Positions 6,070 through 21,937 of a stretch of 40,000 nt of DNA are shown piece after piece (the first letter of the stretch is position 1; each line of letters begins with the position of its first letter). The notes below the pieces were generated by a model. That model was not told the origin of the DNA. It searched no databases and saw only the letters and a list, made by a program, of their open reading frames with translations. Origin of the DNA: Fontibacillus panacisegetis (lineage in GTDB: Bacteria; Bacillota; Bacilli; Paenibacillales; Paenibacillaceae); assembly GCF_900102215.1 (NCBI RefSeq), contig NZ_FNBG01000003.1:206397-246396 (forward strand), given 5' to 3'. Both the position numbers and the translations under genes were made by a program.

Positions 6070-8361
6070 CTATTTAATTTTAGGCATTAAAGCTTTAGTT
6101 TCTCCTAATGCTGTAAGTCCACTATAAGCGGATAATACTTCATCTTTCCAAGACCATCTATTTGAACCAATTTTATTCTGCTTCAAATAGTCTCCACCAC
6201 TAATCAAGCACACTACATGTTGGGCACGAGTAACAGCTACATAAAAAATACGGGCTTCTTCCTCCAAATGATTTTGATTATATTTTCCAATCCATTCCTG
6301 ATAACGAGATGACATTCCCTTTTCTCCTTGAAGGCATACATCCAATCCCCAATTATCTTCATCAATGTCAAAAAACTCGGGCATCTGTTTATCATTTAAC
6401 AAAGGTCTCTCGATATTTGGAATAATAACTATAGGATATTCTAAGCCTTTTGCCGAATGAACCGTTGAAAATCTTACTGCATTTTTCACTTGTTGGTTTT
6501 CTTCGTCCACCTCAGCATCATCCATTGCTAACTCTGTCAAGAATGCATTTTGGAACCGTTCTAAGAACTGCTGCATCGTCAAGGCTTCAGCATTCATCTG
6601 TTCTCTTGACCACATCACGAGTTTCTCAAGATTTGCCACGGCTTGAGCATTCCCTCTTGATTTATAATATTCTCTAATTTTTGTAAATTCATATAAACGA
6701 ATCAACAATTGCGGAACAAGTTCAATCTTAATACGTTTTCTGAATTCCTTTATTCCTTTATACCAATCCAAACATTCAGGGGTTCCCTCAAACCAATCGC
6801 ATAAAGGAGTTACTGAGTCAGTTTGGCGATAAATATGAACCGGAGCTTTAAACGGTAAAAATGGTGTCTCTAATGCAAGGTCTAAAGAAACATCATCACG
6901 ATACTTCATCATTGCTTGCAGCATATAATAGCAATTTATTATCTCATTTCTTTGGAAAAAACCTCCGCTAACATCTGTTACAACTGGAATATCTGACTTA
7001 AGTTCTTTGAATTGCTGCTCATAATTAAGCATCTGATCATTCGAACGAAAAAGAACGCAAATGTCTTTGTATTGTACATTACAAAGACCCTTTCCATGCA
7101 TATCTATCTCTTGACTTTGAAACATTTTTATTCGCTTTATTAATTCCTCCACCAATTCATTTTTATTACGACTGTAAACATGATAATACTGAAATGGAAC
7201 CATACTATCCTGTGGTACATGTGCTTCATTTGGGGTAACTAGTACATCTTTCATCACACTATATCGTTCCCCCATACTGTCAAATAGCGCTGATTGAGCC
7301 TCGTTTAACGGCTTTGTTGGGCGACGCGAAGCATTTAATGACAACATAGTCACACCATTTTCCTCAGCCATCTGTTTGATAATTGAATCATCTGCGCCGC
7401 GGAACCCATAAATAGCCTGTTTACGATCTCCTACAACTAAGACATGTCTTAGTTCTTGAATTAATTGATCAATTATTGTTTTTTGTAAGCGATCTGTGTC
7501 TTGAAATTCATCCACAAAGAGGTATTGGAATCTGCGCCCTAAAAGGGGGGCAATAGTACTTCCATTTTGCTGCATCATAGTTGCAGTCTTGTGAAGTAAA
7601 TCATTGGAATCAACCCCGCCTAAAGACTCTTTAATACTCTTATATCTCTTGTCTAAATTATTCAAAAAGGCAGCAACCGCCACACGATATTCTTTCCCAT
7701 CATCATTTGGTTGATTTACTGTTTCATTGTAGAGATCTTCAATTTTCCTACCATTTCCACGTACCCGTTCATACCATTCTTCTAATTTTGAACGCATTTC
7801 ATGTATAGCCCAAGGTATTTTATTAGATTGAAACAAGATTGACATCTCTGCATTTTCTAAAGCATAGTTCATTGTATCATCTAAAGCTCCAAGAAAGTGT
7901 CTGCGGGCAATCAAAACCTCTGTTTCGTGCGGTACGTATTCCTGGTAACCAAATGTTTTAAGCATCATGGAACAGAAACCATGAATAGTTCCAATAAAAG
8001 TAGATGACAATCTTTCTTTCTGTGCGAACCAAAATTTACGCTCTTGTTCGTTATCCTCTAGTTCAGACTTCCTTAACAGATTTTCAACACCTTCTTCAAG
8101 GCGTTGGCGCATCTCATCAGTGGCTTTATTAGTAAACGTGATGAGGGCGAAATCATCTATAGAAGTTTCACTTCGAAAAGTATCTACCAGATGTAATACA
8201 GTAGCTACCATCACCCGCGTTTTACCGGAACCCGCTCCGGCAGAAACAACTGTTATCTTATCAGAACCAATTACTCGATCAACTATAAGTAGTTGCTCTT
8301 CTGAAAGTTCGATTCCTCCACGTTTATTGTTTTCAACTGTAATAGAAATTCCTCCACTCAT
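6070..8361 (-). CDS. UvrD/PcrA/AddA-like SF1 helicase (763 aa, no C-terminal nuclease domain)
   Basis: Start ATG 8361 (MSGGISITV...) follows GGAGGAGGGG. SF1 motifs seen: SAGAGSGKT (I), FTNKATDEMRQRL (Ia), LFVDEFQDTD (II), VVGDRKQAIYGFRGAD (III), LNASRRPTKPL (IV), TVHSAKGLEYPIVII and YVAVTRAQ (VI). Its start lies 1 nt from the stop of the upstream gene. Confidence 0.9.
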   Translation of the reverse strand: MSGGISITVENNKRGGIELSEEQLLIVDRVIGSDKITVVSAGAGSGKTRVMVATVLHLVDTFRSETSIDDFALITFTNKATDEMRQRLEEGVENLLRKSELEDNEQERKFWFAQKERLSSTFIGTIHGFCSMMLKTFGYQEYVPHETEVLIARRHFLGALDDTMNYALENAEMSILFQSNKIPWAIHEMRSKLEEWYERVRGNGRKIEDLYNETVNQPNDDGKEYRVAVAAFLNNLDKRYKSIKESLGGVDSNDLLHKTATMMQQNGSTIAPLLGRRFQYLFVDEFQDTDRLQKTIIDQLIQELRHVLVVGDRKQAIYGFRGADDSIIKQMAEENGVTMLSLNASRRPTKPLNEAQSALFDSMGERYSVMKDVLVTPNEAHVPQDSMVPFQYYHVYSRNKNELVEELIKRIKMFQSQEIDMHGKGLCNVQYKDICVLFRSNDQMLNYEQQFKELKSDIPVVTDVSGGFFQRNEIINCYYMLQAMMKYRDDVSLDLALETPFLPFKAPVHIYRQTDSVTPLCDWFEGTPECLDWYKGIKEFRKRIKIELVPQLLIRLYEFTKIREYYKSRGNAQAVANLEKLVMWSREQMNAEALTMQQFLERFQNAFLTELAMDDAEVDEENQQVKNAVRFSTVHSAKGLEYPIVIIPNIERPLLNDKQMPEFFDIDEDNWGLDVCLQGEKGMSSRYQEWIGKYNQNHLEEEARIFYVAVTRAQHVVCLISGGDYLKQNKIGSNRWSWKDEVLSAYSGLTALGETKALMPKIK

Positions 8362-8362
8362 C

Positions 8363-11233
8363 TTATTCCCCTCCTCCAATTCCCAAACATTCCATACGAA
8401 CTGGACAAGTAGTACAATGTTTACCAGCATGTTTTGGAAACTTATTTTCCTCTATAGAAACTATCCAGTTTGCTAATTGTTCTTCCGATGAATCTTTGTG
8501 CGAAAGTGTTTTTCTCGTGTAATCAGTGTCTTTATATTGAAATTTTTCGATTACATGGGATTGAATAGTTAACCTCCACCAAGAAACAGCATCAAATAAT
8601 GTTTCAAATACTTCTACACCATCAATATCTTTCATCATAATTGATTGGGCACGGGTTTCATCTTGTTTTTTTGTAGCACTTAGAAGCCATTCATGACTAA
8701 GTTCATAATCTAATAACGGAATAGTTAGGATTCCAGAATTCAAATAGTTAGGCACATTGAAAGAAATAATTTTGTTATCATCACTAGGAAGTGTGACATC
8801 AAATTCTTCATTCTCCCCATCAATTATTCTTACTGGATACAGTCCACGCTTACTTGCATGAAATTGAAGTTGGTCTTCAACTTGACGTTCAACGGCTACC
8901 CATGTCTTAGAATCAAAAGTTGGGAACAACTCTGTTACTTGATCCTTAACACACTTTTTGGCTTCCAAAAGAAAGCGAAACAATCCATCTATCTTCTCAT
9001 CTTCTGATCTTAGGACCCTCGGATTTGGCCATTCACCTGTATATTGAGCTAAATTTGTATAAATTTTATCTAACCAAATTCCTTTTGCAACAATATTAAG
9101 TTGCCATTCAGTGCGGTAAACCATAGCCTCTGGATGCAGTAGTTCTAAACGATATCGTAGGGGACATAACCCATAATGGGCAAGCTCATTTAACTCATAC
9201 CTTTTTCTCCGTGCAGGAGGCGGAGGTGGAAAGACTGGTGGGACTTTGGCGAGTGAGATATCTAATTGATCAAAAATACTGCTAACTTCAGTAGGCTTAT
9301 TCATTAGCCTTTCAATTTCGCCAAGATAAACACTTTTTTGAAATGCACGTTCCCCATCCTTGCTAGAGTATGATAACCAAAGCTTTTCACTTGCAGAACG
9401 AATTACGGTTAAGAACATATAACGTTCTTTCATCATATGATTCTCTCGATTGTCCTCATAAAAAGGCCATGATTCAGAGTACAATACTGGAGAGTGCTGA
9501 CTGTCAACAGCTACATACAAAACTGCTGGCTTGTTAATTCCATCCAATGTTTCTGGAGTTACAATGCTTAAACGGTGATCTTCTTTACCATGATCGTCGT
9601 TATCGTTGTTGTTATCCTCGTCTTCCTCCTCCTGCTCAGTAGTACCCCGAGTCAGAGCGTGAATTGCCTCTCCAAATTCACTCGATGTGATATCTATAGA
9701 ATAATAACTCCCAAGTTCTTCGAAAACCTGTTGAATTTGTTCTAGAACTTCTTGTTCTTCACGACGCAGCCGTTTTGGTAATAATTTTTTCATTTCGGCT
9801 TGCAATAATTCAATATGAGATGCAATTGTTTTTTGCCCTCTAACAAACAACCGAACACATGCACTTTCTAGAAGTGAAACAACTTCCTTCCACCTTGCTA
9901 ATGTATGATGATCAAGTTCAAGTAAATGTAAAGGTAATCTTTTATATTGTGTTTTATGTTTCAGAATAAGTCGTTCCAAAACCGAATTCCACTGTTCCTG
10001 AGTTTCACAATCACTAAAATACTGATGTTTTACAGAGCGAAACAACGATGCTGAATCTTGCAACCGCGGCCCAAGCCAACCTGAAGCCAGAATTGTCTCC
10101 AGTTCGTCCATTGTCAACTTTAAATTTCCATTTTCCCATATACGGTACAAAGTCAATACAAAACGACCAACTGGTGTGAGTAACAACAAACGAGGTTGAA
10201 TAGACAATGTAACCGGAATTGGTTCCGAAGAACTGTCCGAATAAAATAATAGTGGGTTCATCGCTAAGTGATCTCTAAAACGATCAATAAATTCTTTAGA
10301 TCTTCTCATAACAATCACTACATCATCAGGTTTGTACGTTTTGTCTGCGAACCAAACTTGCAGTTGGTCGATACAAGCCAACATTTCCCTATCACGATTT
10401 GGATATTTTTTTATGATAATATTTGAAGTATCCCCTGCGTAGTTCACTGTATTATCAGAAAATAGATTTGATTGCAAAAAGTTTAAGTCTTCTTTTTTAC
10501 TATTGGGATCGGTCTCCAGAACTTTATTTGTAATATTCGGAACAGAACTGTAGGTGTTGCTTATTATTTCAAATCCTTTAGGTTGATTAGGATTTAAGGG
10601 AACGACAAAATATAGTTGGATTTTTTTATTCAAACAAGTTTGAACAAAAAGCTTCTGCAGTTCAGTAAAAAATGTAAATCCTTCCATTATCACAACTGAT
10701 TCTGGAGCAAATCCATTAAGCAGAAACTTCCTAGCAGCAGTTTCAAATAGCTCTCGATTTTTTGCTTTCATTTCATTATGAAATGAATTATGTATTGCAA
10801 TCAAATACCTACCCAATTCTGGATTCACAAGACAATCTAATTTTTCCTGCGGAAGAGAAGTGTATCGCAAGTCAATACCCTGAGTTGCTAAATCATAAAA
10901 AACACGCAAAAAAGAATTCGTGTCCTTATGAAATAAATCATGTAGCAATATATCGTCAGCAGCTACTTCTTTTAAAGCTCTTTTTAGAAAGGTCTTTTCC
11001 TCTCCACGTGTAGCAAACTTAACACCTTTTTCTTTCAGAACTCCTTTAAGAAAATCATTAAACAAGGCACACTTTTTATCCTCCCATATTTGAGTCCTAG
11101 GAATTAGCTCCTTACGTTCACGAGCCAATGCTTTTGTTGCAGTGACATATAAATAGGATTTACCCATAATCATCTCTTGTTTAATTAATGCATCAGATGG
11201 TCGAGAATTCTCATACGTACATAAGTAAGGCAT
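8363..11233 (-). CDS. AddB/RecB-family (PD-(D/E)xK plus 4Fe-4S) nuclease-fold protein with inactivated helicase-like N-region
   Basis: ATG 11233 is preceded by AGGAGGG. The Cys arrangement C(PLRYRLE)...C-TT-C-PVRME-C at the C-terminus equals the AddB/Cas4 Fe-S ligand pattern C-Xn-C-X2-C-X5-C. The N-terminal Walker A is degenerate (QEMIMGKS). A GF.FFTELQ-type AddB motif is present. An acidic low-complexity insert EQEEEDEDNNNDNDDHGKEDH lies at about 9580-9645. Confidence 0.75.
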   Translation of the reverse strand: MPYLCTYENSRPSDALIKQEMIMGKSYLYVTATKALARERKELIPRTQIWEDKKCALFNDFLKGVLKEKGVKFATRGEEKTFLKRALKEVAADDILLHDLFHKDTNSFLRVFYDLATQGIDLRYTSLPQEKLDCLVNPELGRYLIAIHNSFHNEMKAKNRELFETAARKFLLNGFAPESVVIMEGFTFFTELQKLFVQTCLNKKIQLYFVVPLNPNQPKGFEIISNTYSSVPNITNKVLETDPNSKKEDLNFLQSNLFSDNTVNYAGDTSNIIIKKYPNRDREMLACIDQLQVWFADKTYKPDDVVIVMRRSKEFIDRFRDHLAMNPLLFYSDSSSEPIPVTLSIQPRLLLLTPVGRFVLTLYRIWENGNLKLTMDELETILASGWLGPRLQDSASLFRSVKHQYFSDCETQEQWNSVLERLILKHKTQYKRLPLHLLELDHHTLARWKEVVSLLESACVRLFVRGQKTIASHIELLQAEMKKLLPKRLRREEQEVLEQIQQVFEELGSYYSIDITSSEFGEAIHALTRGTTEQEEEDEDNNNDNDDHGKEDHRLSIVTPETLDGINKPAVLYVAVDSQHSPVLYSESWPFYEDNRENHMMKERYMFLTVIRSASEKLWLSYSSKDGERAFQKSVYLGEIERLMNKPTEVSSIFDQLDISLAKVPPVFPPPPPARRKRYELNELAHYGLCPLRYRLELLHPEAMVYRTEWQLNIVAKGIWLDKIYTNLAQYTGEWPNPRVLRSEDEKIDGLFRFLLEAKKCVKDQVTELFPTFDSKTWVAVERQVEDQLQFHASKRGLYPVRIIDGENEEFDVTLPSDDNKIISFNVPNYLNSGILTIPLLDYELSHEWLLSATKKQDETRAQSIMMKDIDGVEVFETLFDAVSWWRLTIQSHVIEKFQYKDTDYTRKTLSHKDSSEEQLANWIVSIEENKFPKHAGKHCTTCPVRMECLGIGGGE

Positions 11234-11394: not shown

Positions 11395-12141
11395 TCAAAC
11401 CCCACGCTTATTACCCCACAACAAAGTGTGTAACTGCGGGAGAACTTTAACTTGTCTCAAATCTGAGGAAGCCATGACTTGATTAATCAACCATTCATAC
11501 TTCTCTAATAGTGCAAATGCCAATCCTTCTCTATCTAATGTCGTTACATCGCTATTACCTACCTGCAAAACCAACCTTATGTGAGGATATCGTTTATGAG
11601 CTTGTACTGCATACTGAAGATCATCTTCATCAAAAACGACTACTTTAATACATATTTCATTTGAACTATTTTTCAAGTTCTCCATAACCTCGTCTAATTT
11701 TTCCCAATCAGTTATCATTCCTGAACTTGGTGGTTTCGGGGAAATCGTCAAGTCATCAATATCTGCCATCCACTCTTGCCATCTGCTTCCTTGTGTCTCC
11801 AACCCAACTCGAATTCCTTGGTCATGAAGCAGATTCACTAAGTATCCAATATTCTTTAAGAGTGCTGGATTACCGCCAGAGATGGTTACATGCTCAAAAG
11901 TGTTTCCACCAAGAATTTTCAATTCATCCCAAATCATTTGGGCAGATAATTGTTTAATTTCATTCTTTGCAGAACCGTCCCATGTAAAGGAAGAATCACA
12001 CCATGAACAGGAATAGTCACAGCCAGCTGTTCGAACAAACATTGTTTTTTGTCCAATCACCAAACCTTCTCCCTGAACAGTTGGACCGAATATTTCCAGC
12101 ACCGGGATGGGCTTTTCCTTAGAAGTCAATCTGCCATCCAC
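11395..12141 (-). CDS. queE: 7-carboxy-7-deazaguanine synthase (radical SAM)
   Basis: LEIFGPTVQGEG...FVRTAGCDYSCSWCDS (CX3CX2C cluster) and ~245 aa match a Bacillus-type QueE. It overlaps the queD stop by 16 nt. Confidence 0.92.
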   Translation of the reverse strand: MDGRLTSKEKPIPVLEIFGPTVQGEGLVIGQKTMFVRTAGCDYSCSWCDSSFTWDGSAKNEIKQLSAQMIWDELKILGGNTFEHVTISGGNPALLKNIGYLVNLLHDQGIRVGLETQGSRWQEWMADIDDLTISPKPPSSGMITDWEKLDEVMENLKNSSNEICIKVVVFDEDDLQYAVQAHKRYPHIRLVLQVGNSDVTTLDREGLAFALLEKYEWLINQVMASSDLRQVKVLPQLHTLLWGNKRGV

Positions 12142-12617
12142 TCCCGTCTTGCTTCGGCATAGCTGGTTGGTGTTTCGAATAACCGGACAAATTCAGTTCT
12201 TGCATCCACGTCTTTTGATGAGTATTTATCAGTACTTAGCGCTGTTTCCATCTGCTCATAAAGCCAAACGACCATGTTTTCAGCAGTCGTATTCATTAAC
12301 GGCAACGTCTCATTTAGATATCTGTGGTCTAAGTATGGCTCTATTTGCTCACGCCAAATTGTTTTTATCATTCCAAAATCTATCGTCATGCCAATTTCAT
12401 TTGTATATCCACTTACTCCAAAAACAACTTTATAGGTGTGACCATGTAGATTTTTACATTTACCCTCATATGCATGCAAGTGATGCGCCGCGTCAAAAGT
12501 AAATTCTTTACTGACTAATACTCTGCGCTGATGATATTTCAACTGTTCTTGAGTAATATCCTCTTTAAACTTTTGCAATGCATCTACAATGACGAATTGC
12601 CCTGGCATTTTGTTCAT
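12126..12617 (-). CDS. queD: 6-carboxy-5,6,7,8-tetrahydropterin synthase
   Basis: [26 protein letters not shown] shows the QueD/PTPS Cys-X3-His-Gly-His signature. Confidence 0.92.
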
Positions 12618-13297
12618 AACATCTGCTCCGGATTTCTTCCTTGCAAAAATCTATCCAAACCAGCTTTTCTCAACTGGCAAGCAGGACAAGTACCACATCC
12701 ATCACCGATAATACCGTTGTAGCAAGTTAAAGTCTTTTGGCGTACAAATTCAAACGCCCCTAATTGATCTGCCATTTCCCACGTCTCTGCTTTATCAATC
12801 CACATTAACGGAGTATGAATGATAAAATTATGATCCATCGCTAAATTTAACGTCACATTTAGGGACTTGATGAAATCATCCCGGCAGTCAGGATATCCAC
12901 TAAAATCTGTCTCGCAGACGCCTGTTACAATATGTCTAGCATCTACTCCTTTAGCAAATACTGCGGCGAAACTTAAAAACAAATGATTACGTCCTTCCAC
13001 AAATGTGCTGGGAAGTTCACCATCATTATGAACAATTTGGAGGTCATTACGTGTCAGAGCATTCTGAGTTAGTTGACCGAGCAAGCTCATATCAAGTAAC
13101 GTCCACTTTACTCCAAGTTCATCGGCGATTTTTTTAGCACATTCAATTTCTAAAGCGTGCCTTTGTCCATAATTAAAGGTGATTGCTTCAACTTCGTCAA
13201 AGTGCTTCATTGCCCAAAACAAACAAGTTGTACTATCTTGACCGCCACTAAAAACTACAACGGCTTTTCTGTTTTTTTGTTCCATAATCTTACCCAC
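12614..13297 (-). CDS. queC: 7-cyano-7-deazaguanine (preQ0) synthase
   Basis: [15 protein letters not shown] is the PP-loop. The C-terminal Zn cysteines are CYNG...[11 protein letters not shown]. There is a 4-nt ATGA overlap with queD. ATG 13285 is an alternative start. Confidence 0.93.
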
Positions 13298-13351
13298 TTT
13301 CTCACCATTCTCCCTTAATGATAACAGATGTACTATTTTATCGAAAGTTGA

Positions 13352-16300
13352 CTATTTATCGTTGCCCACAACTAATCTAATCTCTACAACTTCAAACAAA
13401 TTAGGAAACTTCTCTTTAATCTCTTCTAACAGACGTTTACCTTGGACTGGTGGGAGGGTACTATAACCATTCTCAATGAGTAATCTAATATGTCTTTTTA
13501 TAGAAGGCCTGATTTGAGAATTGTGATTTATTCTTTCGAGTAGTTGATAAATATTCCCAACGTCTTCATAATCAAGATCATTCCGAATTACTTCAAGAAG
13601 GTTTATTTTGATCTGCTCAAGTTGAAGTTTTCTTTCAACCAGTTCTCTTAATTCATAAAAGTCTATTGATTGCCACTCATCAATTACGGAATTGAGTTCA
13701 GATTCAATCTGTGAACCCTCCATTAAGAGCTCAACACATGCAATCATTTTTAATTTAAGTTCCTTAATTGGCTTTAGAATTTCTAATTGGACTTGAAGAT
13801 TTAACAAATACTTAACTAAAGTGCGCGGAGTTAAAGCAAGACAGTTTTTTAGATTTGATACCTGCTGCACATTAGTTAGAATTTTTCTTTTCTTCTTCTC
13901 TAATTCAGACAAAGAGAACTTACCATCATCAACAATTTCTACTCCCACTTCTTCATAAGTCGCTTGCATACCACACTCAATAAGAAAATCAACTACTTCC
14001 ATTAAAGCCTGGTCAAATTGCTTTGATAATTGATCAACTTCATTGTTTAAAGCAAATAACCTATTAAATTGAATGACTAACTCTGGTTGTTCTAATTGTT
14101 GTTCCAGCAGCGTATAATTCACAAGGTCTTGTTGTCGAAGAAATATCTTTTCGTTAAAAGTACAAATTTGGTCTGCAAGTTTAATCCATTCTGATTTACA
14201 AGAACCCATTAGAAATGGAATCATCGTTAGTCTTTTTTCAATTGATTGCCTAAAGCTTTGATGAAGCAGTTCAAGATAACCACTATAGCTTTCTTTTAAG
14301 TTTGATAAGAATTCCTTCAAGGTTAGACTACCTATTGTAAAGCTTTCTAACGTTTTAGAAGGTACAAGACTTAATAACCATAGATCAAATTCTTCATTCG
14401 CTAATACATCATCATCTGGAGTCTCATAAAAATTTTCACGTAACAAATACCAATCTGAATAACATTCATCAAGCAATGACATTAATTCTTTGTTGAAGGG
14501 AGATTTTCCTTTCGCATCGGAAGTCCATGAGGATTCGCTATATATTCTGGCTTGTTGCGCCCAATTCCTCATTCCGTGCACAAATACAGGTAGCTTCAAC
14601 CCAAGAGCTAGCTCGAGAGATTCAAACCATATTTTACGAACATTTTCTGCCTGATATATCCATTTGGAGGTTTCATATTCATTCGAGATTTTTTGAAATG
14701 TATTTAATTTTTCTGAATACTTCATCGTTTGAAAGTTGGTAATTTGAATGCCAACGTAGCTACGATTTACATTTATAGAGAACTCGTCATTTTTGTCTAG
14801 TTTAATAGGATATCGTGTTCGATTAACAACTTCATTCCATTGAATAACTGAGGAGGTTCGAGATGTGAATGAGCGGTTCATATGTACCCCCTTTATAACA
14901 TCATGTACCAGAGCAGCAACTCCAGATCTAACAGGTAATAATAGTTCATCGTTTACTTCTTTTCCTTCTACCCAATCTCTGACTACCTCTTTTTCATTGA
15001 AGACAGCATTATTTTCATTTTTATACTCTATTTGAAGCGGTAGTTCTTCCCTTGTATTACCTGCTGCTATCTTGTTTAACTTAATAGATATTTGATTTTC
15101 GCTATAACCAAAGTGCTTTAACAGGGGTTCAGAAATTATCATTTGAATTGCATCCTCAGACGCATACCATTCAGATAGTGTTTTAATAAACATATCTTCA
15201 TGCTCCGCAAACATTTCCCTGCGTATAAGTGGAATAACTCTACTAACATGCTTTTTACCTTTTAGAAAGAAGCGTAAGATTTCCTTGCTATTCAGTATCA
15301 TGTAACGTAATTTACCTTTTCCTATAGGAATAGCATCGTATGTGCGTCTTAGCATGTGACTATTAAATGGGAGCAACTGAACTCCAAGATAATTTAAATT
15401 ACTATCCTTGTCGCTTTCCTCTGGCAGGATACCAGAACATTGTTTGTAGTGCGGACATTTAAGAGAGCAGTTGAATCCCTGCGTCGCTTTCAGTTGGGTA
15501 AGATAATTTGCTATATATGGTACTACTTGCTTACGATCAAGATTGAAAAAGTCTTTCCCAGACTCATCCGATAGCCATAGCTTTTTTACACGATCATTAA
15601 TAGTATCAAGATTCTGTATTCTTTGTGTGAGACTAAACCCCTTCTCTGTATCCTGAACTGCACCAGGTGTCAAACCAATGACCACATCCCAGCTCCCTTC
15701 TTCTAATGTAATAAGTTGATCAAGGATACTGGTTGCGTAAATATTAACTGATTGAACTAAATCATCAATCAACAACAAAGGACGGATTCCTCTGCTTTTT
15801 ATCTGCAAAGACATTTGTTTAAAAAGGGTTCCGATATCTTGTCCCTCGAAAAGAAAATGGTCCAACTGCCGCGAGAGATTTTGTCGAAATGCTGCGTATT
15901 CTAATGGAATATGAAGGGTTGTATTGGCGAGTAAAGTTTCAAACTGTTCCCGATGCATCACCTCTAGTGGATTTTTAATTTTTCCTCGTTTAACTTGTGA
16001 TGTAAAATCAATAATATTTTGCTCAATCACCGGCCTTAACAATAGTGCTGTTGGAACGATCTCCTCATCGGACTCCATAGCTTCCGCTAATGTTGTCCAA
16101 ACCATTTGGTTAACAAGGGTTATGGGCTTTTTAAGCAAAATCCCCCACCTGTCTTCATCAATACAAACATCTAGGGATAAATTCAGTGTTTCTAAACATT
16201 TTTTGATCAGGGTCTGAGGATTTAGTTCTGTTCGTGAGATTCGTATCACGGGTCTATCTGATACTTCCGCTACCCACTTATCTTTTAACCAACGAAGCAG

Positions 16301-16552
16301 TTCGGATTTCCCCGATCCTGTCGAACCGAATACTAAATAAACTCTGTTGCCACTAGTATCAGTTTCTTTGAGTTCTCCCAACAATTCATCTTCCGTAACC
16401 TCAGCGATTAACTGACTACCGTTATACCTATGCATTACTTGCGGAAAATGCGTTCTTCTGAAATACTCAGGTGATTGGTCATATCGCTCATCTGCAGTAC
16501 CAGCTAAAAGTTTAAGCGAATTTTTGTTGAGACAAGGAAGCATTAGTATCAC
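13352..16552 (-). CDS. Large P-loop NTPase (1066 aa), family unassigned
   Basis: Walker A is VYLVFGSTGSGKSELL near aa 75-90. A Walker-B-like segment RPLLLIDDLVQS lies near aa 265-276. There is a Cys cluster CSLKCPHYKQC, followed by about 650 aa of helical sequence without motifs I recognise. The start is ambiguous (GTG 16552 or ATG 16543). It overlaps the upstream gene by 32-41 nt. Confidence 0.8.
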   Translation of the reverse strand: MILMLPCLNKNSLKLLAGTADERYDQSPEYFRRTHFPQVMHRYNGSQLIAEVTEDELLGELKETDTSGNRVYLVFGSTGSGKSELLRWLKDKWVAEVSDRPVIRISRTELNPQTLIKKCLETLNLSLDVCIDEDRWGILLKKPITLVNQMVWTTLAEAMESDEEIVPTALLLRPVIEQNIIDFTSQVKRGKIKNPLEVMHREQFETLLANTTLHIPLEYAAFRQNLSRQLDHFLFEGQDIGTLFKQMSLQIKSRGIRPLLLIDDLVQSVNIYATSILDQLITLEEGSWDVVIGLTPGAVQDTEKGFSLTQRIQNLDTINDRVKKLWLSDESGKDFFNLDRKQVVPYIANYLTQLKATQGFNCSLKCPHYKQCSGILPEESDKDSNLNYLGVQLLPFNSHMLRRTYDAIPIGKGKLRYMILNSKEILRFFLKGKKHVSRVIPLIRREMFAEHEDMFIKTLSEWYASEDAIQMIISEPLLKHFGYSENQISIKLNKIAAGNTREELPLQIEYKNENNAVFNEKEVVRDWVEGKEVNDELLLPVRSGVAALVHDVIKGVHMNRSFTSRTSSVIQWNEVVNRTRYPIKLDKNDEFSINVNRSYVGIQITNFQTMKYSEKLNTFQKISNEYETSKWIYQAENVRKIWFESLELALGLKLPVFVHGMRNWAQQARIYSESSWTSDAKGKSPFNKELMSLLDECYSDWYLLRENFYETPDDDVLANEEFDLWLLSLVPSKTLESFTIGSLTLKEFLSNLKESYSGYLELLHQSFRQSIEKRLTMIPFLMGSCKSEWIKLADQICTFNEKIFLRQQDLVNYTLLEQQLEQPELVIQFNRLFALNNEVDQLSKQFDQALMEVVDFLIECGMQATYEEVGVEIVDDGKFSLSELEKKKRKILTNVQQVSNLKNCLALTPRTLVKYLLNLQVQLEILKPIKELKLKMIACVELLMEGSQIESELNSVIDEWQSIDFYELRELVERKLQLEQIKINLLEVIRNDLDYEDVGNIYQLLERINHNSQIRPSIKRHIRLLIENGYSTLPPVQGKRLLEEIKEKFPNLFEVVEIRLVVGNDK

Positions 16553-17288
16553 ATCTCCCCTCTACCTTAATCCAGTTCAATGTATTTTTTGGCCCATAGG
16601 ATTTATATGGAAAATCTTGCACATAACTCAATTCTATTTCCCCTGCCTCAGCTAATCCCATCAATGAAAAAATAATCCCTTTATAAATATTCCCTTCTGA
16701 TGTTAAGCATGGAATAACCGGGTGAATAAATCTTTCACAGAATAGATGTAATCCACCCTCCCATGTCTCGTTTCTTTCAATAATACTTCTCATTAATGAA
16801 AGTTGTGGAAGTGCATAAAAACCTGAGTAGACACGTCTCCCCAATCCCCAACATTCCATCATACGCTTCCATGCATTTACTTTTTCATGACCAACTACTG
16901 TCTTCATTAATTGGCTATTAACTTGGTAATGAATATTACTCACAAATAGTCTATCTGGCTTTACAAAGAACTCTTCAAAAATTGTCGTAAATAAATTATC
17001 AAGTGAATCGCTCGGCATATTATCAGAAGTTGAAATCCCCCTTAATCTCAGAAAAACTTCTTTGTTAGACCATGCTTTATTTTGTGACACATAAAATCGT
17101 GCTTTGTCTTTATATATGAATTGTAAATCTTCTAATACCGTCAAGGCACATTCGATTAAAGAGGTAATGTCACCCTCTTCCCGATACTGGAACTTTGTTT
17201 TTAACCCATTTGCATCCATTCCAGGCTTAGCTCTTAGTTCCTCATAAATTACTTCAATTTCTGGCCCGTAACACATTTGGAACAACAT
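16512..17288 (-). CDS. Hypothetical protein (258 aa), possible N-terminal winged-helix
   Basis: ATG 17288 is preceded by GGAGGGG at 5 nt. It overlaps the 3' end of the 310-aa gene by 35 nt and the 5' end of the NTPase gene. There is no catalytic motif, and the wHTH guess is weak. Confidence 0.65.
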   Translation of the reverse strand: MLFQMCYGPEIEVIYEELRAKPGMDANGLKTKFQYREEGDITSLIECALTVLEDLQFIYKDKARFYVSQNKAWSNKEVFLRLRGISTSDNMPSDSLDNLFTTIFEEFFVKPDRLFVSNIHYQVNSQLMKTVVGHEKVNAWKRMMECWGLGRRVYSGFYALPQLSLMRSIIERNETWEGGLHLFCERFIHPVIPCLTSEGNIYKGIIFSLMGLAEAGEIELSYVQDFPYKSYGPKNTLNWIKVEGRCDTNASLSQQKFA

Positions 17289-18186
17289 GTTCGCCCCTCC
17301 TCTGCTTATTTTCTAAAATATCTTTAAATGTTCTTAATAAGTGATAATAATTGTGGACTGATCTTAACTTCATATATTCTCTCGGGGAGGGAATAAAAAT
17401 CTGTTTTGCATTAATTTCACATACAGGGCATTCACAATGAAGTGGATTTTCCAATCGAGGGCTTGTGGGTTTTGCTCTGGATTCTGATAAAAAAAATGTT
17501 CTAAATGGTCTACTGTAAAATACCTGAAAGAATGCAGCGGCCATTGTTGGTCGAGTTGAATCAAATGACTTTACTCCAATATCAACCATCGCATGAAGTT
17601 GAGGAATCCCTGTTACTCCAAAGACATGAAGGTTGGCAGATCCAACAACATCTACAGCTCTCCTAATCATTTCAATCTGTTCAGTCTGATGCTTAAATAA
17701 CAAGGACCCGATCCCGAAATTTTCATACCCCATCTTAATTAACTCATATGCTGAAAACTCTATACTAGCTTGGTCATAACCTTGGATTACTCCCATTGGT
17801 TGAACAAATTTAGGAAGCTCATACTTATTAAAGAGATTTAAATATTCGTACGCATTAAATAGCGTTCTTTCTATGGCCATGTATCGTTCAGATAAAGAGG
17901 TCTTATTTAATAGGGGTTCATCAAAATGAACCATTTGAATTTTTGCCGTTGAATCGCAATCTTCCAAGATTGATAGTTGAATATCAAAAACATCTTTTAG
18001 TGGTGGCCTACTTTTTTGTTTAACATAAAAAACTGATCCACAATCTAGTATTAACTTTTTAGGTTTGTTTCTATACTTCTTTACTCCTCCTCTATTGTCT
18101 GGAATTGCACTTATTAGCACCGGACACGTAGGGAAGTAGTCACAAAAAATTGCATCACTATGTGACCAACCAATATAAAAATCCAC
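17254..18186 (-). CDS. TGT-family transglycosylase, DpdA-like (310 aa, stand-alone)
   Basis: GTG 18186 is preceded by AAGGAGG at 8 nt. TGT hallmarks: LILDCGSVFY (catalytic-Asp region), GVIQGYD, GIGSLL, HVFGVTG, SFDSTRPT, and the zinc site CECPVC...22 aa...HNYYH (CxCxxC...H). Confidence 0.8.
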   Translation of the reverse strand: MDFYIGWSHSDAIFCDYFPTCPVLISAIPDNRGGVKKYRNKPKKLILDCGSVFYVKQKSRPPLKDVFDIQLSILEDCDSTAKIQMVHFDEPLLNKTSLSERYMAIERTLFNAYEYLNLFNKYELPKFVQPMGVIQGYDQASIEFSAYELIKMGYENFGIGSLLFKHQTEQIEMIRRAVDVVGSANLHVFGVTGIPQLHAMVDIGVKSFDSTRPTMAAAFFQVFYSRPFRTFFLSESRAKPTSPRLENPLHCECPVCEINAKQIFIPSPREYMKLRSVHNYYHLLRTFKDILENKQRRGEHVVPNVLRARN

Positions 18187-18204
18187 AACACGAACCTCCT
18201 TTTC

Positions 18205-18223
18205 ATACGTGATTATACGTGAT
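18205..18223 (-). promoter_or_regulatory. Candidate promoter -10 embedded in a tandem direct repeat
   Basis: The minus strand reads ATCACGTAT-A-ATCACGTAT (two 9-mers at a 10-bp period). The TATAAT (18217-18212) is formed at the repeat junction, about 20 nt upstream of the RBS of the 310-aa gene. Confidence 0.35.
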
Positions 18224-18270
18224 ATTTTGATTTTAGCATATTTTTCTTCACATAACTACTCTAAAAAATA

Positions 18271-18295
18271 TAAAAAAAGAAGCCTTCAGGCTTCT
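18271..18295 (-). terminator. Rho-independent terminator overlapping the stop codon of the 262-aa gene
   Basis: Minus strand: AGAAGCC-TGAA-GGCTTCT followed by TTTTTTTATATTTTTT. The TGA stop sits in the loop. Confidence 0.75.
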
Positions 18296-19074
18296 TTTAT
18301 CCATTGTCTCCATATTTCATATATTAATCCGCGCTGTTCATCATTAAATTTGAAGCGACCATTATTTACATTTAAGACAGGATTATCTCTGTCAAAGAAG
18401 TTTCCAGTCCAATTTTCATAATGAAATTTCTTTAATAACAATGGACGCGGCAAAATTTGTGAACCAGTAATCCATTGTTCAATGAAATATCTAATATAGC
18501 AATACCACGCTATAGAGGAATCAGCAATAGATTTTTTTCGGAACTGTTTCCTTTGTACCACAGAAAGGTATCCTAATTCAGAGTAATCATTCATTAAAGA
18601 ATCAACGTACTTGATTAAATCTTTGGTTAATTGAGGATATAAACTACGCTCAATTCGATAGTTTAGAAAATCTTCAAAAATATCATGCAACGATCTGATG
18701 GTCATTAGTTTAGTGGAGTTACTACTTATCTTTTCTCCCCTCTCTATTAACCGTTCAAAACGTTGATAAGACAATAATTGATGAACACAGTAACTTGGAA
18801 ACTGTTGTACTTCAGATACAATTAGAACAACATACTCATCATTCTTACTACCATTGGGCAATTTGTATGTAAATTGTGGGTTTTTCACTTGTAATTTGTT
18901 ATCAATTAAACTCACGACAGTATCATAATTGACTAAAATGACGTCTTCGCCAACTACATCAGACTGAACTACTGGAAATCCCCAATCTTTGATCTGACCT
19001 AGGGGCAAGACAGTAAAATAAACTTTATTGTTCTTTCTCGTTAAATTGCTTATGTTCTCAAAAGTAAAAAACAT
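18286..19074 (-). CDS. Hypothetical protein (262 aa)
   Basis: ATG 19074 is preceded by GGGGGAA. The N-terminal ~100 aa look beta-rich and the C-terminal half looks helical. No motif recognised. Confidence 0.65.
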   Translation of the reverse strand: MFFTFENISNLTRKNNKVYFTVLPLGQIKDWGFPVVQSDVVGEDVILVNYDTVVSLIDNKLQVKNPQFTYKLPNGSKNDEYVVLIVSEVQQFPSYCVHQLLSYQRFERLIERGEKISSNSTKLMTIRSLHDIFEDFLNYRIERSLYPQLTKDLIKYVDSLMNDYSELGYLSVVQRKQFRKKSIADSSIAWYCYIRYFIEQWITGSQILPRPLLLKKFHYENWTGNFFDRDNPVLNVNNGRFKFNDEQRGLIYEIWRQWIKEA

Positions 19075-19088
19075 GGAATTTCCCCCAA

Positions 19089-19129
19089 CGCAAATATGCC
19101 TTAGTGTACCACACTAAGGCATATTTGCG
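19089..19129 (-). repeat. Perfect 19-bp-stem inverted repeat between the 683-aa and 262-aa genes
   Basis: CGCAAATATGCCTTAGTGT-ACC-ACACTAAGGCATATTTGCG fills almost the whole 57-nt intercistronic gap. No T-tract follows it on the coding strand. Confidence 0.9.
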
Positions 19130-19131
19130 CA

Positions 19132-21183
19132 CTATTTATTCCACCGCTTCTTTAATTCCTGAATTTGACTATAATATACATGTGTATTATGGAAGCCTCT
19201 TCGTCTGTTCCTATTGTTACCCCTGAATACTATGACATCAATTCCAATTTCCCTACATATATTACAACCACATTGTTCCCATGGTCTTTCAGATAAAACC
19301 TCTCTATACATGTCCTCATGAACTTCACGCTTTTCACCAAGTATTTTGTCATACTCCAGTATAGCTTCAAGTGTCGAATCTAACTCTCTTGTCCCTGCGC
19401 TGAACTCTCTAAGAGCGCCCAAAGCCTCTTGTTCAAGTCTTCTATATTCCGCAAACTCTATTTCATCACTATTTTGCAACATTTTTTTCACTCGACCAGA
19501 TGTTTCTTTGGCTTCTGGAATTCTAATCGCTGTATAATGTTTTCCATTTAAAGAGTGGTAATTATGCCCTGTTCCTAACCATGCTCTTCTCAATGGTGAA
19601 GAAGAGTCAAATGATGTCACGCCCAACTTATGGAATGACTCCATTGTTCTCACATCTCGTGCAACACCAAATAAGTGCATTCGAAACGTAGGGCTTGGAA
19701 TAATAGGCGCTATTTCTTTTAAAATTTCATATATTTTTTCAGATTGTTCTCTGGCTAAACCACCTAGGGCAACATAATCGTAACCTAACCCAATAAGATG
19801 CGCAACCGCTCTTCGGAAAGAAGGCGGGTCCCACCCTTGAACTATACCTATCGGATGGAACTGATAGTTCATTATTTCTTTTCTTTCTCTATACATGTGT
19901 AAAAATTCTTCCGCCATCGTAAGGGTTAATTCATAACGCTGATTTCGAATGTTTTCATCTTTTTGAAAGGGTCCGACTATCAGATGATCAATAGATACAC
20001 CATAATCTAAACCTAAAGTATGATAGTAATCCATAATTTCTTCGGTCGTATACGGTGGTACATCTTTATCAATATAACTAAAAGCACCGCAATCACCCAT
20101 AATAGGATACTCTCTAGGTAGTTTATAAAAATCGTGCAAACCCATTTCTTCAATCATCTGATTTTTTTGTTTGGTGGCACTATCAATGTTTACTTTAGAG
20201 ACAAGTAACCCATCAAACTGTGGTCTATCGAATATCTGGTGAGCATACACATCATTTTCTAATGGATTTCTATTTTTTTCTGAGAAATCAGTCATAAAAT
20301 CATAATTAGGATCTACCCTATCATCATTCTCTGGAAGGTAAAATCTTGGTTCCTCAATGCAATTTATAGCGACCAACTCATCCGGTACAGGGAACATTTC
20401 ACTAAAGAACTTTAATAAATTTCCACTATCCGATGTTTCATTAAATAACTCAAGTTGTTTAGTTGAAGCAATCGAATCTAAAATAAATGATCTAATTTGA
20501 TCAGGATGATGTATTATTGTGCTCCATTTCTGATCAATATCAGTTGTAATAATATTTCTTAATAAATGTGCAAAAAGATAACCTTTAATTCCGATCAATC
20601 CATATTTAAAGGTTTTAGCTTCTTTTTCACCAATAGTTAATACATGATAATCATCCCAATTTAAAATTCTAGCACGACTAGATGCTCCAGCAAAAAAGAT
20701 AACCTTTTGATTTTTATCCAGATTCAGTGGCCACTCCACAGCTTGTAAATATTTATCTCCGAGCAAGAAAAAAATAAGATCATATTCTGCAATTTTTGTT
20801 TGTAGTACCTGCGTAATTTTGAGTTCTCGCGCCCATCTTTTTATAGACCGTGAGTCCATCGTGTTAAAAGTTACTTCATAAGGCACAATTTGCTCATCTT
20901 CATTCAAAAGGCCATAACCCGCTGAAATAATGCAAAGATCAATGTCCCCTCCTTGCTGACGATATTCTTTAATACCATTCATTAGCGCAAGATGTTGACT
21001 ACCGGTGTACATTTCATCAGCACGTTCTTTAAATTCCAATAATTCTTCTTCTCTTCTTCTCAAGACTTCTTTATTTTTAAAATCGTCAAATACAAGTTGA
21101 TTTATAGGTTTGTGTAACTTCTCTCCAGTACAAGAAGTCACAACAAGAATACGGTTTGACAAAAACATCCCATCCTTTAACAC
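19132..21183 (-). CDS. Fusion protein: N-terminal YaaA/DUF6884-like domain plus C-terminal TGT/DpdA-like transglycosylase (683 aa)
   Basis: C-terminal half: MGDCGAFSY, GIVQGWD, ALGGLA, HLFGVA, SFDSSSPLRR, and the zinc site CGCNIC...22 aa...HNTH. N-terminal ~230 aa: VVTSCTGEK, EMYTGSQH, IISAGYGLLNEDEQIVPYEVTF. The last resembles the YaaA motif SGLYGVLRP...PYRLEM and the SA.YGL motif of DUF6884. ATG 21168 is an alternative start. Confidence 0.8.
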   Translation of the reverse strand: MLKDGMFLSNRILVVTSCTGEKLHKPINQLVFDDFKNKEVLRRREEELLEFKERADEMYTGSQHLALMNGIKEYRQQGGDIDLCIISAGYGLLNEDEQIVPYEVTFNTMDSRSIKRWARELKITQVLQTKIAEYDLIFFLLGDKYLQAVEWPLNLDKNQKVIFFAGASSRARILNWDDYHVLTIGEKEAKTFKYGLIGIKGYLFAHLLRNIITTDIDQKWSTIIHHPDQIRSFILDSIASTKQLELFNETSDSGNLLKFFSEMFPVPDELVAINCIEEPRFYLPENDDRVDPNYDFMTDFSEKNRNPLENDVYAHQIFDRPQFDGLLVSKVNIDSATKQKNQMIEEMGLHDFYKLPREYPIMGDCGAFSYIDKDVPPYTTEEIMDYYHTLGLDYGVSIDHLIVGPFQKDENIRNQRYELTLTMAEEFLHMYRERKEIMNYQFHPIGIVQGWDPPSFRRAVAHLIGLGYDYVALGGLAREQSEKIYEILKEIAPIIPSPTFRMHLFGVARDVRTMESFHKLGVTSFDSSSPLRRAWLGTGHNYHSLNGKHYTAIRIPEAKETSGRVKKMLQNSDEIEFAEYRRLEQEALGALREFSAGTRELDSTLEAILEYDKILGEKREVHEDMYREVLSERPWEQCGCNICREIGIDVIVFRGNNRNRRRGFHNTHVYYSQIQELKKRWNK

Positions 21184-21190
21184 AATATAA

Positions 21191-21212
21191 AATAGGGCGA
21201 GAACGCCCTATT
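21191..21212 (-). terminator. Hairpin (terminator or attenuator) between the transporter and the 683-aa gene
   Basis: Minus strand: AATAGGGCG-TTCT-CGCCCTATT followed by TTATATTG. It begins 2 nt after the transporter stop and ends about 8-20 nt before the next start. Confidence 0.55.
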
Positions 21213-21213
21213 T

Positions 21214-21759
21214 TCAAACAACTTTTGCTTGTTTAAAGAAAATTCGTTTAACAATAATTGCAGCAACTAATTGAACTAATGTCTTAACAATAATTTGGCC
21301 AACGATAGCTAAAAACACAGCATTCCACGGAAGAATATTAGCCCCCAACGGTGATAAACCAATAACAACGAAAATAATACTATCTAAGATTCCACCAACA
21401 ATTCCACTATACGCTACCCTTAGATGAAAAGGTAATTTAAGACGGGAATAGATTTCTGTATCTGTGGTCTCAGATACTGCAAATGTAATAATTGATGCAA
21501 AAACAATCCAAAGTGTATCTCCCAGTAAAAGCGATGTTAATGCTGATAAAATCATTGCTAATAAAATAAGCAAATAGGTCCTGCGTCGACCAATGAAATT
21601 TTGAACAAAATCACGGAAAATAAATGTTGCCCCAATTATAAAAGTCCCTGCCGGAACAATGAAGGGACCGATAAAAAATGGGGGTACTCCTGCTGTTACA
21701 ACATTTGATGAAACGATAGCCAGTAAATAAGCTACGATGGTTAAATATTTAATTTTACA
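21214..21759 (-). CDS. YhhQ/VUT-family queuosine-precursor (preQ0/preQ1) transporter; no canonical start codon
   Basis: The frame is open from 21759: (C)KIKYLTIVAYLLAIVSSNVVTAG...FIFRDFVQNF...VSETTDTEIYSRL...GGILDSIIFVVIG, which are DUF165/YhhQ-type motifs on a multi-TM protein. The track only reports the C-terminal 119 aa because no ATG/GTG/TTG occurs between 21759 and 21573. Confidence 0.7.
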   Translation of the reverse strand, partial: CKIKYLTIVAYLLAIVSSNVVTAGVPPFFIGPFIVPAGTFIIGATFIFRDFVQNFIGRRRTYLLILLAMILSALTSLLLGDTLWIVFASIITFAVSETTDTEIYSRLKLPFHLRVAYSGIVGGILDSIIFVVIGLSPLGANILPWNAVFLAIVGQIIVKTLVQLVAAIIVKRIFFKQAKVV

Positions 21760-21786
21760 TCACCTCTTCAATTTGATCCATCACCA

Positions 21787-21795
21787 ATTATAACA
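21787..21795 (-). promoter_or_regulatory. Extended -10 (TGTTATAAT) upstream of the transporter gene
   Basis: The minus strand reads GTGGTGTTATAATTGG about 20 nt upstream of the GAGGTG RBS. There is no good -35. Confidence 0.35.
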
Positions 21796-21937
21796 CCACT
21801 TTTGATTCCGACCTACCCTCGCTAAACTAAATCATACTACAAATTTCGACTCAGTTTGCTAAGAAATATTTATTAAGGGAGGTATTTTTTACTTTAAGTC
21901 GAATAATTAAATGAGAGATTAAACTTTTATAGATTGG

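Follow-up and report, generated by a model that had tools for sequence, protein, structure and literature searches.

In a 40,000-nucleotide stretch of Fontibacillus panacisegetis DNA (the window; unless a related locus is named, coordinates are positions within it) lies a locus that we interpret as a subtype of the Dpd modification-restriction island, the bacterial system that marks its own DNA as self with 7-deazaguanine bases. In this subtype there would be two transglycosylases and no DpdB, with a trio of proteins acting in the role of DpdB, a reading to which we give an even chance of being correct. The trio consists of a 310-residue TGT paralogue (TGT'), a 258-residue DpdG homologue (DpdG') and a 1066-residue DpdH homologue (DpdH'), and it is encoded alongside a 683-residue DpdC-DpdA fusion. 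A DpdB-like function of the trio is suggested because no DpdB was detected (by tests of limited sensitivity), because each locus of this kind encodes a TGT paralogue with its catalytic residues intact along with a P-loop ATPase and a protein of several winged-helix modules, because the trio lies on the DpdA side of islands with complete DpdE-K sets, because it is probably co-transcribed with queCDE, and because the sole fusion seen together with DpdB shows no trio. All genes of the module (11395-21759) are intact and on the minus strand; they include, as a preliminary description of this DNA had claimed, queC, queD, queE, a gene for a YhhQ-type transporter and genes for two TGT-fold proteins, all lying where it had placed them. 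From the list of open reading frames (ORFs), the module reads:

11395-12141, minus strand: queE
12126-12617, minus strand: queD
12614-13297, minus strand: queC
13352-16552, minus strand: 1066-residue DpdH'
16512-17288, minus strand: 258-residue DpdG' (gene overlapping both neighbours)
17254-18186, minus strand: 310-residue TGT'
18286-19074, minus strand: 262-residue accessory protein
19132-21183, minus strand: 683-residue DpdC-DpdA fusion
21214 to about 21759, minus strand: YhhQ/Vut_1-type transporter

Residues 280-676 of the 683-residue protein match the DpdA equivalog NF041059 along its full length (445.5 bits, cut-off 200), and the protein matches the PADLOC DpdA model at 2.7e-125; judged by its sequence, it contains a full DpdA DNA-guanine transglycosylase domain at residues 280-679, as expected of canonical Dpd. 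DpdC (DUF6884/DUF328-like), likewise a component of canonical Dpd, is by the same kind of comparison present as well and fused N-terminally to DpdA, because residues ~10-165 match DUF6884 (PF21818; 48.3 bits, cut-off 30), which is the Pfam domain of DpdC (PMC12235509), as well as PADLOC DpdC (1.9e-11), and share the motifs LY.G.QH, D..I.SAG.GL and VPY..TF with DpdC of the canonical Enterobacter cloacae dpd cluster. On the Paenibacillus sp. 37 plasmid pART37 the fusion is labelled 'DpdA' in RefSeq, so that the Dpd affiliation in itself is not new. All the TGT motifs quoted in the preliminary description occur in both TGT-fold proteins, as DCGAFSY (364), GIVQG (446), LFGV (504), SFDSS (524) and CGCNIC (638) in the fusion and as DCGSVFY (48), GVIQG (132), VFGV (188), SFDST (207) and CECPVC (251) in TGT'.

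The second of these proteins, TGT', is a member of the TGT superfamily (Pfam TGT, PF01702: 55.4 bits, cut-off 26.3) that falls below the equivalog cut-offs for DpdA (77 vs 200), Tgt (24 vs 307) and TgtA (arcTGT; 22 vs 350), and these scores place it in a separate clade of the TGT/DpdA superfamily. Its best match among solved structures is DpdA (7ui4, 6e-16), followed by arcTGT. Residues D48, D89 and D209, which align with D95, D130 and D249 of arcTGT, and the Cys3His zinc ligands C251, C253, C256 and H282 are invariant in 22 family members, and the corresponding Asp residues have been shown to be essential in DpdA (PMC10164549); TGT' is probably catalytically active. It is a stripped-down TGT core, having neither the N-terminal extension nor the ~80-residue insertion of DpdA, and the D-x-P at its D89 motif is closer to arcTGT and Tgt than to DpdA. 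The protein is 100% identical to one recorded for F. panacisegetis, and its family is rare, as searching 1.84 billion proteins at E<=1e-30 gave 41 representatives of it. A phage origin was considered and rejected (one marginal match in 50,697 phage records and no PHROG), as was a DpdG-like identity, for which there was no match.

The two partners of TGT' are related to DpdG and DpdH at a distance that profile-profile comparison was able to bridge. The 258-residue protein has no direct match in Pfam, PADLOC, NCBIfam or PHROGs; its family profile (39 sequences) aligned by hhalign with five DpdG proteins over 205 columns at Prob 94.2 and E 1.2e-7 (thinner profiles gave Prob 58), and on this whole-length similarity we assign it as a DpdG homologue. 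Its AlphaFold2 (AF2) model (pLDDT 88.9, pTM 0.85) has a helix-strand pattern of three predicted tandem winged-helix-like modules, and the weak Foldseek matches in the PDB are to tandem winged-helix proteins (RPC3, SelB WH2-4 and VPS25). Family members P0182 and P0208 carry a precomputed match to PF28110, an accession next to PF28109, which is named DpdD; PF28110 may be a new Dpd-related family, possibly DpdG. In the 1066-residue protein a Walker A (GSTGSGKSE) and a Walker B motif (LLLIDDL) are both invariant in 17 homologues. The single sequence matches DpdH at its N-terminus only (PADLOC 1e-7; NCBIfam NF041065 2e-8), and the score on the equivalog NF041065, confined to the N-terminal 100 residues, is 33.1 bits vs a cut-off of 450. 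With a profile of 17 sequences compared by hhalign with four annotated DpdH proteins, the similarity extends over 481 columns (Prob 99.2, E 1.9e-19), aligning residues 26-558 with residues 25-623 of DpdH, a region in which both Walker motifs, a Cys cluster and the motif LLPFN/LYPFN are found; the C-terminal half of the protein is variable, and identification of its C-terminus as DpdI was rejected (Prob 1.9). The protein is thereby classed, at the level of sequence profiles, as a P-loop NTPase and remote DpdH homologue. Both DpdG' and DpdH' are paralogues rather than orthologues of DpdG and DpdH, because the true proteins coexist with them: among the related loci (given L numbers here), L029 and L034 each have a complete canonical DpdG-H-I set beside them, L016 and L021 a canonical DpdG.

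The genome scan with the 310-residue family gave 24 loci, to which plasmids and metagenomes added more. In 26 of 26 distinct related loci with adequate flanks, the fusion, TGT', DpdG' and DpdH' are found together. This core occurs in Bacillota, Chloroflexota and Deinococcota, with Paenibacillus, Brevibacillus, Bacillus, Neobacillus, Laceyella, Gorillibacterium, Ktedonobacteria/Dictyobacter, a Chloroheliaceae metagenome-assembled genome and Deinococcus as hosts; queCDE and the transporter are frequent neighbours of it in variable positions. DpdB, the DGQHR/ParB-DndB-like ATPase of canonical Dpd, had no PADLOC or NCBIfam match among the window proteins and was found by tblastn in none of the related loci, the test on the loci (tblastn with two queries plus a motif regular expression, over 10-kb flanks) being of limited sensitivity. 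No ORF with the motif DGQ[HQ]R is present in the 40-kb window, and the related loci hold only one, a 717-residue SspE-like ORF carrying DGQQR beside the module of Dictyobacter kobayashii (L025, ~11.7-13.9 kb); the motif was otherwise seen only in the two canonical comparison clusters. A metagenomic DpdC-DpdA fusion (L038) has a DndB/DpdB-family neighbour and DpdJ/K-like genes, with no trio visible on its 12.5-kb contig, and for that reason the fusion cannot serve to define the subtype.

Of the DpdD-K set that canonical Dpd possesses, PADLOC, NCBIfam and tblastn found neither D, E and F nor I, J and K in the window, the remote paralogues DpdG' and DpdH' being all that it has. In related loci the slot downstream of the module is occupied as follows:

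DpdE with or without DpdF (PADLOC 1e-210 to 1e-235; DpdF 2e-204): 13 ORF-cluster loci and L034
DpdF: L016, L020 and L021; by tblastn also L008, L011, L012, L017, L019 and L034
DpdJ, DpdK and DpdD (E = 0, 1e-53 and 3e-15): L013-L015, L025, L031 and L034
UvrD helicase with the 956-residue protein or a homologue of it as candidate nuclease: window, L007 and L034
UvrD helicase with a PDDEXK_1 protein, homology to the 956-residue protein not shown: L030 and L033

Close relatives (84-95% identical) have DpdE where the window has the gene for the 956-residue protein, and in the Bacillus loci L016 and L021 canonical DpdG follows DpdE-DpdF. The most extended island is on pART37, where queEDC, the transporter, the fusion, the 262-residue protein, TGT', DpdG' and DpdH' are followed by DpdJ, DpdK, DpdD, DpdE-like, DpdF, DpdG-like, DpdH-like and DpdI-like proteins, a second DpdJ and a second DpdD, and finally by homologues of the window's 956-residue protein (44%) and UvrD helicase (57%). 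On a Deinococcus taeanensis plasmid the fusion and the trio adjoin an annotated dpdE-F-(G)-H-(I)-J-like operon, and a NERD-plus-956-like protein stands beside the transporter, queD and queC. Since the trio coexists with bona fide DpdE-K genes, it belongs to the DpdA side of the island and does not replace the restriction operon.

Hairpins divide the block in the window into several transcription units:

21214-21189: terminator-like hairpin after the transporter gene
19089-19129: 19-bp inverted repeat without mismatches (loop of 3 nt), separating the genes of the fusion and the 262-residue protein
18298-18275: terminator-like hairpin after the gene for the 262-residue protein
11385-11357: strong terminator-like hairpin after queE, ahead of the gene for the 956-residue protein

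For the 19-bp repeat, possible functions are termination, attenuation and the binding of a protein. The genes of TGT', DpdG' and DpdH' overlap by 35 and 41 nt, queC, queD and queE overlap one another, and no terminator-like hairpin occurs from the trio into queCDE until 11385. From these gene overlaps and hairpin positions, TGT'-DpdG'-DpdH'-queCDE probably form one operon, and the genes of the 956-residue protein and the UvrD helicase probably another. The latter two read:

8363-11233, minus strand: 956-residue AddB-like protein, candidate nuclease partner
6070-8430, minus strand: UvrD/AddA-like superfamily 1 (SF1) helicase (786-residue ORF; the called gene, of 763 residues, begins just after the gene of the 956-residue protein)

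The 956-residue protein has a weak similarity to NCBIfam AddB (8e-7; 27 bits vs a cut-off of 904), a PD-(D/E)XK signal below threshold and a cluster of Cys residues in its C-terminal part; the PDDEXK_1 C-terminus recurs in four homologues at E 0.003-0.11, and comparisons with solved structures and with the PDDEXK_1 protein of L030 gave no meaningful match. The helicase is clear (PF00580 2.6e-50; PF13361 7.6e-31), lacks a nuclease domain and scores 198 bits on AddA vs a cut-off of 708; in PADLOC, GajB and RTasHel dominate the best 25 of its 57 families. Neither by equivalog scores nor by possession of a nuclease domain on each subunit does the pair qualify as AddAB. Homologues of the helicase with 54-57% identity are found at the equivalent position in L007 and on pART37, the family of the 956-residue protein and TGT' each occur on the same two plasmids only (72,556 plasmids searched), and the pair recurs with the module in the window, L007, pART37 and Deinococcus. 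The AddB-like/UvrD pair (6070-11233) is part of the island, and the suggestion in the preliminary description that the 6.0-11.3 kb region be considered with the module was thus apt.

From these components a mechanism may be proposed. QueC, QueD and QueE together with FolE of the host would make preQ0, which the YhhQ-type transporter could also salvage, as strong homology indicates for each; the DpdA domain of the fusion, again by strong homology, would exchange guanine in DNA for preQ0, and the fused DpdC domain would hydrolyse dPreQ0 to dADG, an assignment that likewise follows from strong sequence homology. In canonical Dpd the base exchange needs ATP hydrolysis by DpdB (PMC10164549). We infer that this ATP-dependent role has passed to the co-translated trio, with DpdG' binding DNA and DpdH' serving as the ATPase beside TGT'. 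The trio would behave as a BREX-like complex that loads on DNA, uses ATP and lets the transglycosylase write or check the mark at target sites, and the discrimination would be passed on to a helicase-nuclease effector, namely the AddB-like 956-residue protein and UvrD in the window and DpdE/F or DpdJ/K/D in relatives.

Several points weigh against this interpretation. The steps as laid out for this lineage are predictions from the genes. In Salmonella, dpdD-K, with G and H included, are needed for restriction and not for modification (PMC10164549), and because they serve restriction there, homology points the trio to sensing or restriction as easily as to modification. The fusion may, by analogy, need no helper, because phage DpdA enzymes work without DpdB. 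The analogy with BrxC comes from a preprint, and PADLOC gave no BrxC match for the 1066-residue protein. The complementarity of the trio with DpdB is drawn from few DpdB-positive comparators (L027, L028 and L038), from 10-kb flanks and from a DpdB test of limited sensitivity, and the nuclease assignment of the 956-residue protein is sub-threshold, which leaves it a candidate.

Another idea, possible and offered tentatively, is that the trio is a new kind of machine for modification-dependent discrimination, in which a transglycosylase takes the place that a methyltransferase has in a BREX-like ATPase/winged-helix complex. If this is true, the trio would write a second 7-deazaguanine mark, at another site or as another derivative, or would read the mark by base flipping; ATP-driven transglycosylation would then itself be the self/non-self test, and DpdB would be bypassed.

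The strongest competing explanation, which we consider rather unlikely, is that the trio forms the sensing or restriction arm of the island. TGT' would flip and test the base, excising guanine or remaining covalently trapped on unmodified foreign DNA, DpdG' and DpdH' would recruit the helicase-nuclease, and the fusion alone would carry out self-marking in the manner of phage DpdA. The place of DpdG and DpdH in the Salmonella restriction operon dpdD-K (PMC10164549) is in line with this, as are the retention of the nucleophile and the acid/base Asp in TGT', the flanks covered for L002-L006, in which DpdG' and DpdH' are the only DpdG/H-like genes to be seen, and the fact that the window offers only the UvrD and AddB-like proteins as other candidate effectors. 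A second sensor would, however, be redundant where canonical DpdG-H-I (L029, L034) or DpdG (L016, L021) coexists with the trio; the probable co-transcription with queCDE in the window suggests that the trio needs a supply of preQ0; and the trio is absent wherever DpdB is present, few such cases having been seen.

It could also be that the island is modification-only or decayed, dpdD-K having been lost or never acquired, with the mark serving an epigenetic or anti-restriction function and the AddB-like/UvrD pair being an independent repair or defence module. We judge this unlikely. It would account for the failure to find DpdD/E/F/I/J/K in the window, for the DpdE of the 84-95% identical relatives in place of the gene for the 956-residue protein and for the strong terminator that separates this gene from queE, and it agrees both with reported dpd islands without a restriction operon (PMC12235509) and with the decay of nearby defence genes (a truncated Nhi/AbiO). 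Every ORF of the module is intact, however, and the recurrence of the pair with the module in four settings (window, L007, pART37 and Deinococcus) and the presence of the plasmid copies of the 956-residue protein only on the two TGT'-carrying plasmids speak against its independence, as do the UvrD and PDDEXK_1 pairs, homology to the 956-residue protein not shown, that adjoin the module in L030 and L033.

The preliminary description had favoured a self/non-self system apart from Dpd, without any of DpdB, DpdC or DpdD-K, and this now appears very unlikely. It was right that the module is Dpd-related and non-canonical, with two different enzymes of the TGT family, and that no DpdB could be recognised, none having been detected here within the limited sensitivity of the test. 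Direct hidden Markov model (HMM) scans of Pfam, PADLOC, NCBIfam and PHROGs did leave the 258- and 262-residue proteins without a recognisable family, as it had stated, and gave the 1066-residue protein only a sub-threshold N-terminal match to DpdH. Of its two orphans the 262-residue protein stays unassigned, whereas the 258-residue one is a DpdG homologue (hhalign Prob 94.2); its 'different ATPase' does carry the Walker A and B motifs of a P-loop NTPase, yet it is a remote homologue of DpdH (Prob 99.2). The absence of DpdD-K held for D, E, F, I, J and K, whereas remote paralogues of G and H are present, and DpdC, said not to be recognisable, was found as the DUF6884 domain of the 683-residue protein. 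Because of this DpdC domain, the DpdG/H homology by profile-profile comparison and the occurrence in relatives of canonical, bona fide DpdE/F or DpdJ/K/D next to this module, the claim of a separate system is largely refuted, and the locus is better regarded as a subtype of Dpd. The locus is at the same time no ordinary canonical Dpd, as the 258- and 1066-residue proteins are not orthologues of the usual kind (33 vs 450 bits for DpdH, with true DpdG/H coexisting), and the anticipated co-occurrence in other genomes was borne out by synteny of the gene set in 26 other distinct loci. Finally, an action of TGT' on tRNA or other RNA, by which the island would couple DNA and RNA deazaguanine modification, is the least probable explanation: it has in its favour the membership of TGT' in the TGT superfamily and a D89 motif (D-x-P) more like that of arcTGT and Tgt than that of DpdA, and is countered by DpdA as best solved-structure match, by scores far under the Tgt and arcTGT cut-offs, by the lack of tRNA-binding extensions and by the constant operon association of the TGT' gene with the DpdG'/DpdH' paralogues.

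The DpdB-less Dpd subtype that we favour can be set against known systems. It shares with canonical Dpd (dpdA-K of Salmonella Montevideo; PMC10164549) a DpdA-class enzyme, a DpdC-type domain, adjacent preQ0 genes with a YhhQ transporter, proteins of the DpdG and DpdH families, DpdE/F/J/K/D in relatives and the nature of a horizontally acquired island. It differs in that no DpdB was detected, DpdC and DpdA form one protein, a further, minimal TGT paralogue and the 262-residue protein are present, remote DpdG'/DpdH' stand beside true DpdG/H in some islands, and the window has an AddB-like/UvrD pair instead of DpdD/E/F/I/J/K. With BREX (BrxA/B/C-PglX-PglZ) it has in common that genes for a DNA-modifying enzyme, a large P-loop ATPase and a DNA-binding protein of several winged helices lie together, and DpdH/I have been likened to BrxC and DpdE to BrxHII (bioRxiv 10.1101/2025.09.15.676423); here, by contrast, the modifying enzyme is a base-exchanging transglycosylase rather than a methyltransferase, there is no PglZ, BrxL or PglX, and no module protein had a PADLOC match to the defining BREX components BrxC, BrxA, PglX or PglZ. 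The resemblance is to be taken as a functional analogy from the literature. BREX-related capture (BRC) systems with a TGT (PMC12839542) resemble the module in having a TGT-family enzyme without DpdB. They lack DpdC as well, another NTPase having been proposed to replace DpdB (PMC12839542), whereas the present module has both a DpdC domain and a bona fide DpdA; their own genes (HerA/FtsK, PglZ, DUF6079, DUF4007 and a STAND NTPase) are all missing from this module. Phage modules (PMC6884629; PMC10516641) likewise combine DpdA with preQ0 genes and act without DpdB, but the 310-residue protein has no significant phage relative and the locus is chromosomal and free of phage genes. The downstream pair recalls AddAB/RecBCD in the translational coupling of a UvrD-family SF1 helicase to a large partner, one with Cys residues clustered at its C-terminus and with a weak PD-(D/E)XK signal, and differs in scoring far below the AddA and AddB cut-offs, in having a helicase without a nuclease domain and in travelling with Dpd-type islands.

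We found no paper on a DpdB-less, two-TGT Dpd cluster, a mention in the early Dpd literature still being possible, and what appears new is the trio, with its complementarity to DpdB, the Dpd affiliation being already known. The largest dpd survey required both dpdA and dpdB and included 11 Bacillota windows only (PMC12235509). Surveys with this requirement will have missed the lineage, and deazaguanine DNA modification is for that reason probably under-counted in Bacillota, Chloroflexota and Deinococcota. The lineage amounts to a natural experiment in which DpdB has been removed and a second transglycosylase with DpdG/DpdH paralogues put in place, giving a compact handle on the roles of DpdG/H-type proteins and on why DNA transglycosylation needs an ATPase. 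The version in the window, with ~11 genes and a Bacillus-like host, would make a compact test system, one that could show whether a TGT-fold enzyme can be the writer or reader in a BREX-like complex.

The preQ0 genes are readily assigned, QueE scoring 370 bits on TIGR03365 (cut-off 206) and QueC and PTPS (QueD) Pfam matches being on record for an identical contig (Logan assembly). The transporter matches Pfam Vut_1 (1.5e-15) and falls just below the cut-off of TIGR00697 (8.8e-12; 45 bits, cut-off 50.95), and from its sequence we take it to be a YhhQ/Vut_1-type transporter of queuosine precursors (preQ0/preQ1). Its ORF has no ATG, GTG or TTG start (region 21753-21760, minus strand); a ribosome-binding site (GAGGTG) is followed by an ATG-TAA mini-ORF, and an in-frame ATT at 21753, which aligns exactly with the ATG of distant transporter orthologues, is the probable start. 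Since this arrangement is kept in seven related loci (with ATC in L006), the missing canonical start is not a sequencing error, and the region suggests a non-canonical start or translational control. Ahead of the gene lies, on the same strand:

21787-21818, minus strand: upstream element GGGTAGGT (21818-21811), followed 18 nt later by TATAAT (21792-21787)

In nine divergent loci, whose coding sequences are only 60-70% identical, GGGTAG(C/G)T is located 17-18 nt upstream of TATAAT, and both GGGTAG.T and TATAAT are invariant. The element, for which no Rfam family was matched, is a probable promoter or operator of the island, and GGGTAG(C/G)T may be an unusual -35 element or an operator. A preQ1 riboswitch ahead of the transporter was considered and rejected, with no Rfam match at gathering or at E<=10.

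The 262-residue accessory protein, encoded in the window and in 17 distinct related loci, all from Bacillales, was without a direct match in Pfam, PADLOC, NCBIfam and PHROGs, and canonical Dpd proteins searched with an HMM yielded no match either. Of 11 family members, four match PADLOC DndB at positions 160-253 (E 1e-4 to 1e-2), a weak DndB-like middle segment that is centred on an invariant S-x-NSTK motif. Identities as DpdB (hhalign against a two-sequence DpdB profile) and as DpdI (profile comparison) were tried and dropped, both comparisons being empty. The AF2 model is unusable (pLDDT 52), and seven close homologues were found. In Bacillus/Neobacillus (L019, 7278-9824; L021, 1279-3921) the DpdC-DpdA fusion is 849-881 residues long, its C-terminus being longer by ~170-200 residues; L019 has no separate gene for the 262-residue protein, of which the extension in that locus might be a fused equivalent.

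As to the setting, the stretch at ~2-24 kb has a GC content of 0.29-0.40 vs 0.41-0.49 outside, and the Dpd block lies within it; this low-GC stretch of F. panacisegetis carries the locus as a chromosomal island among the debris of defence genes. A 308-residue ORF (2081-3007, minus strand) matches positions 1-276 of the 470 of PADLOC Nhi (9e-97) and AbiO (4e-94) and looks, from this alignment, like a defence gene that has lost its C-terminal part. A 135-residue ORF (786-1193, minus strand) at the border of the low-GC island is presumably a Y1 transposase of the IS200/IS605 TnpA type. The part of lowest GC content (0.29) contains a 618-residue ORF (3873-5729, minus strand) for which PADLOC, NCBIfam, PHROGs and Pfam (where one chance match fell below threshold) gave nothing credible and which has no counterpart in any related locus; it could be an orphan defence gene. 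Other defence genes adjoin the module in relatives, with a pPIWI_RE operon in L033 (529-7850) and HerA-NurA and SbcCD-like genes in L030 (1-5371), and the module is for this reason taken to live in defence islands.

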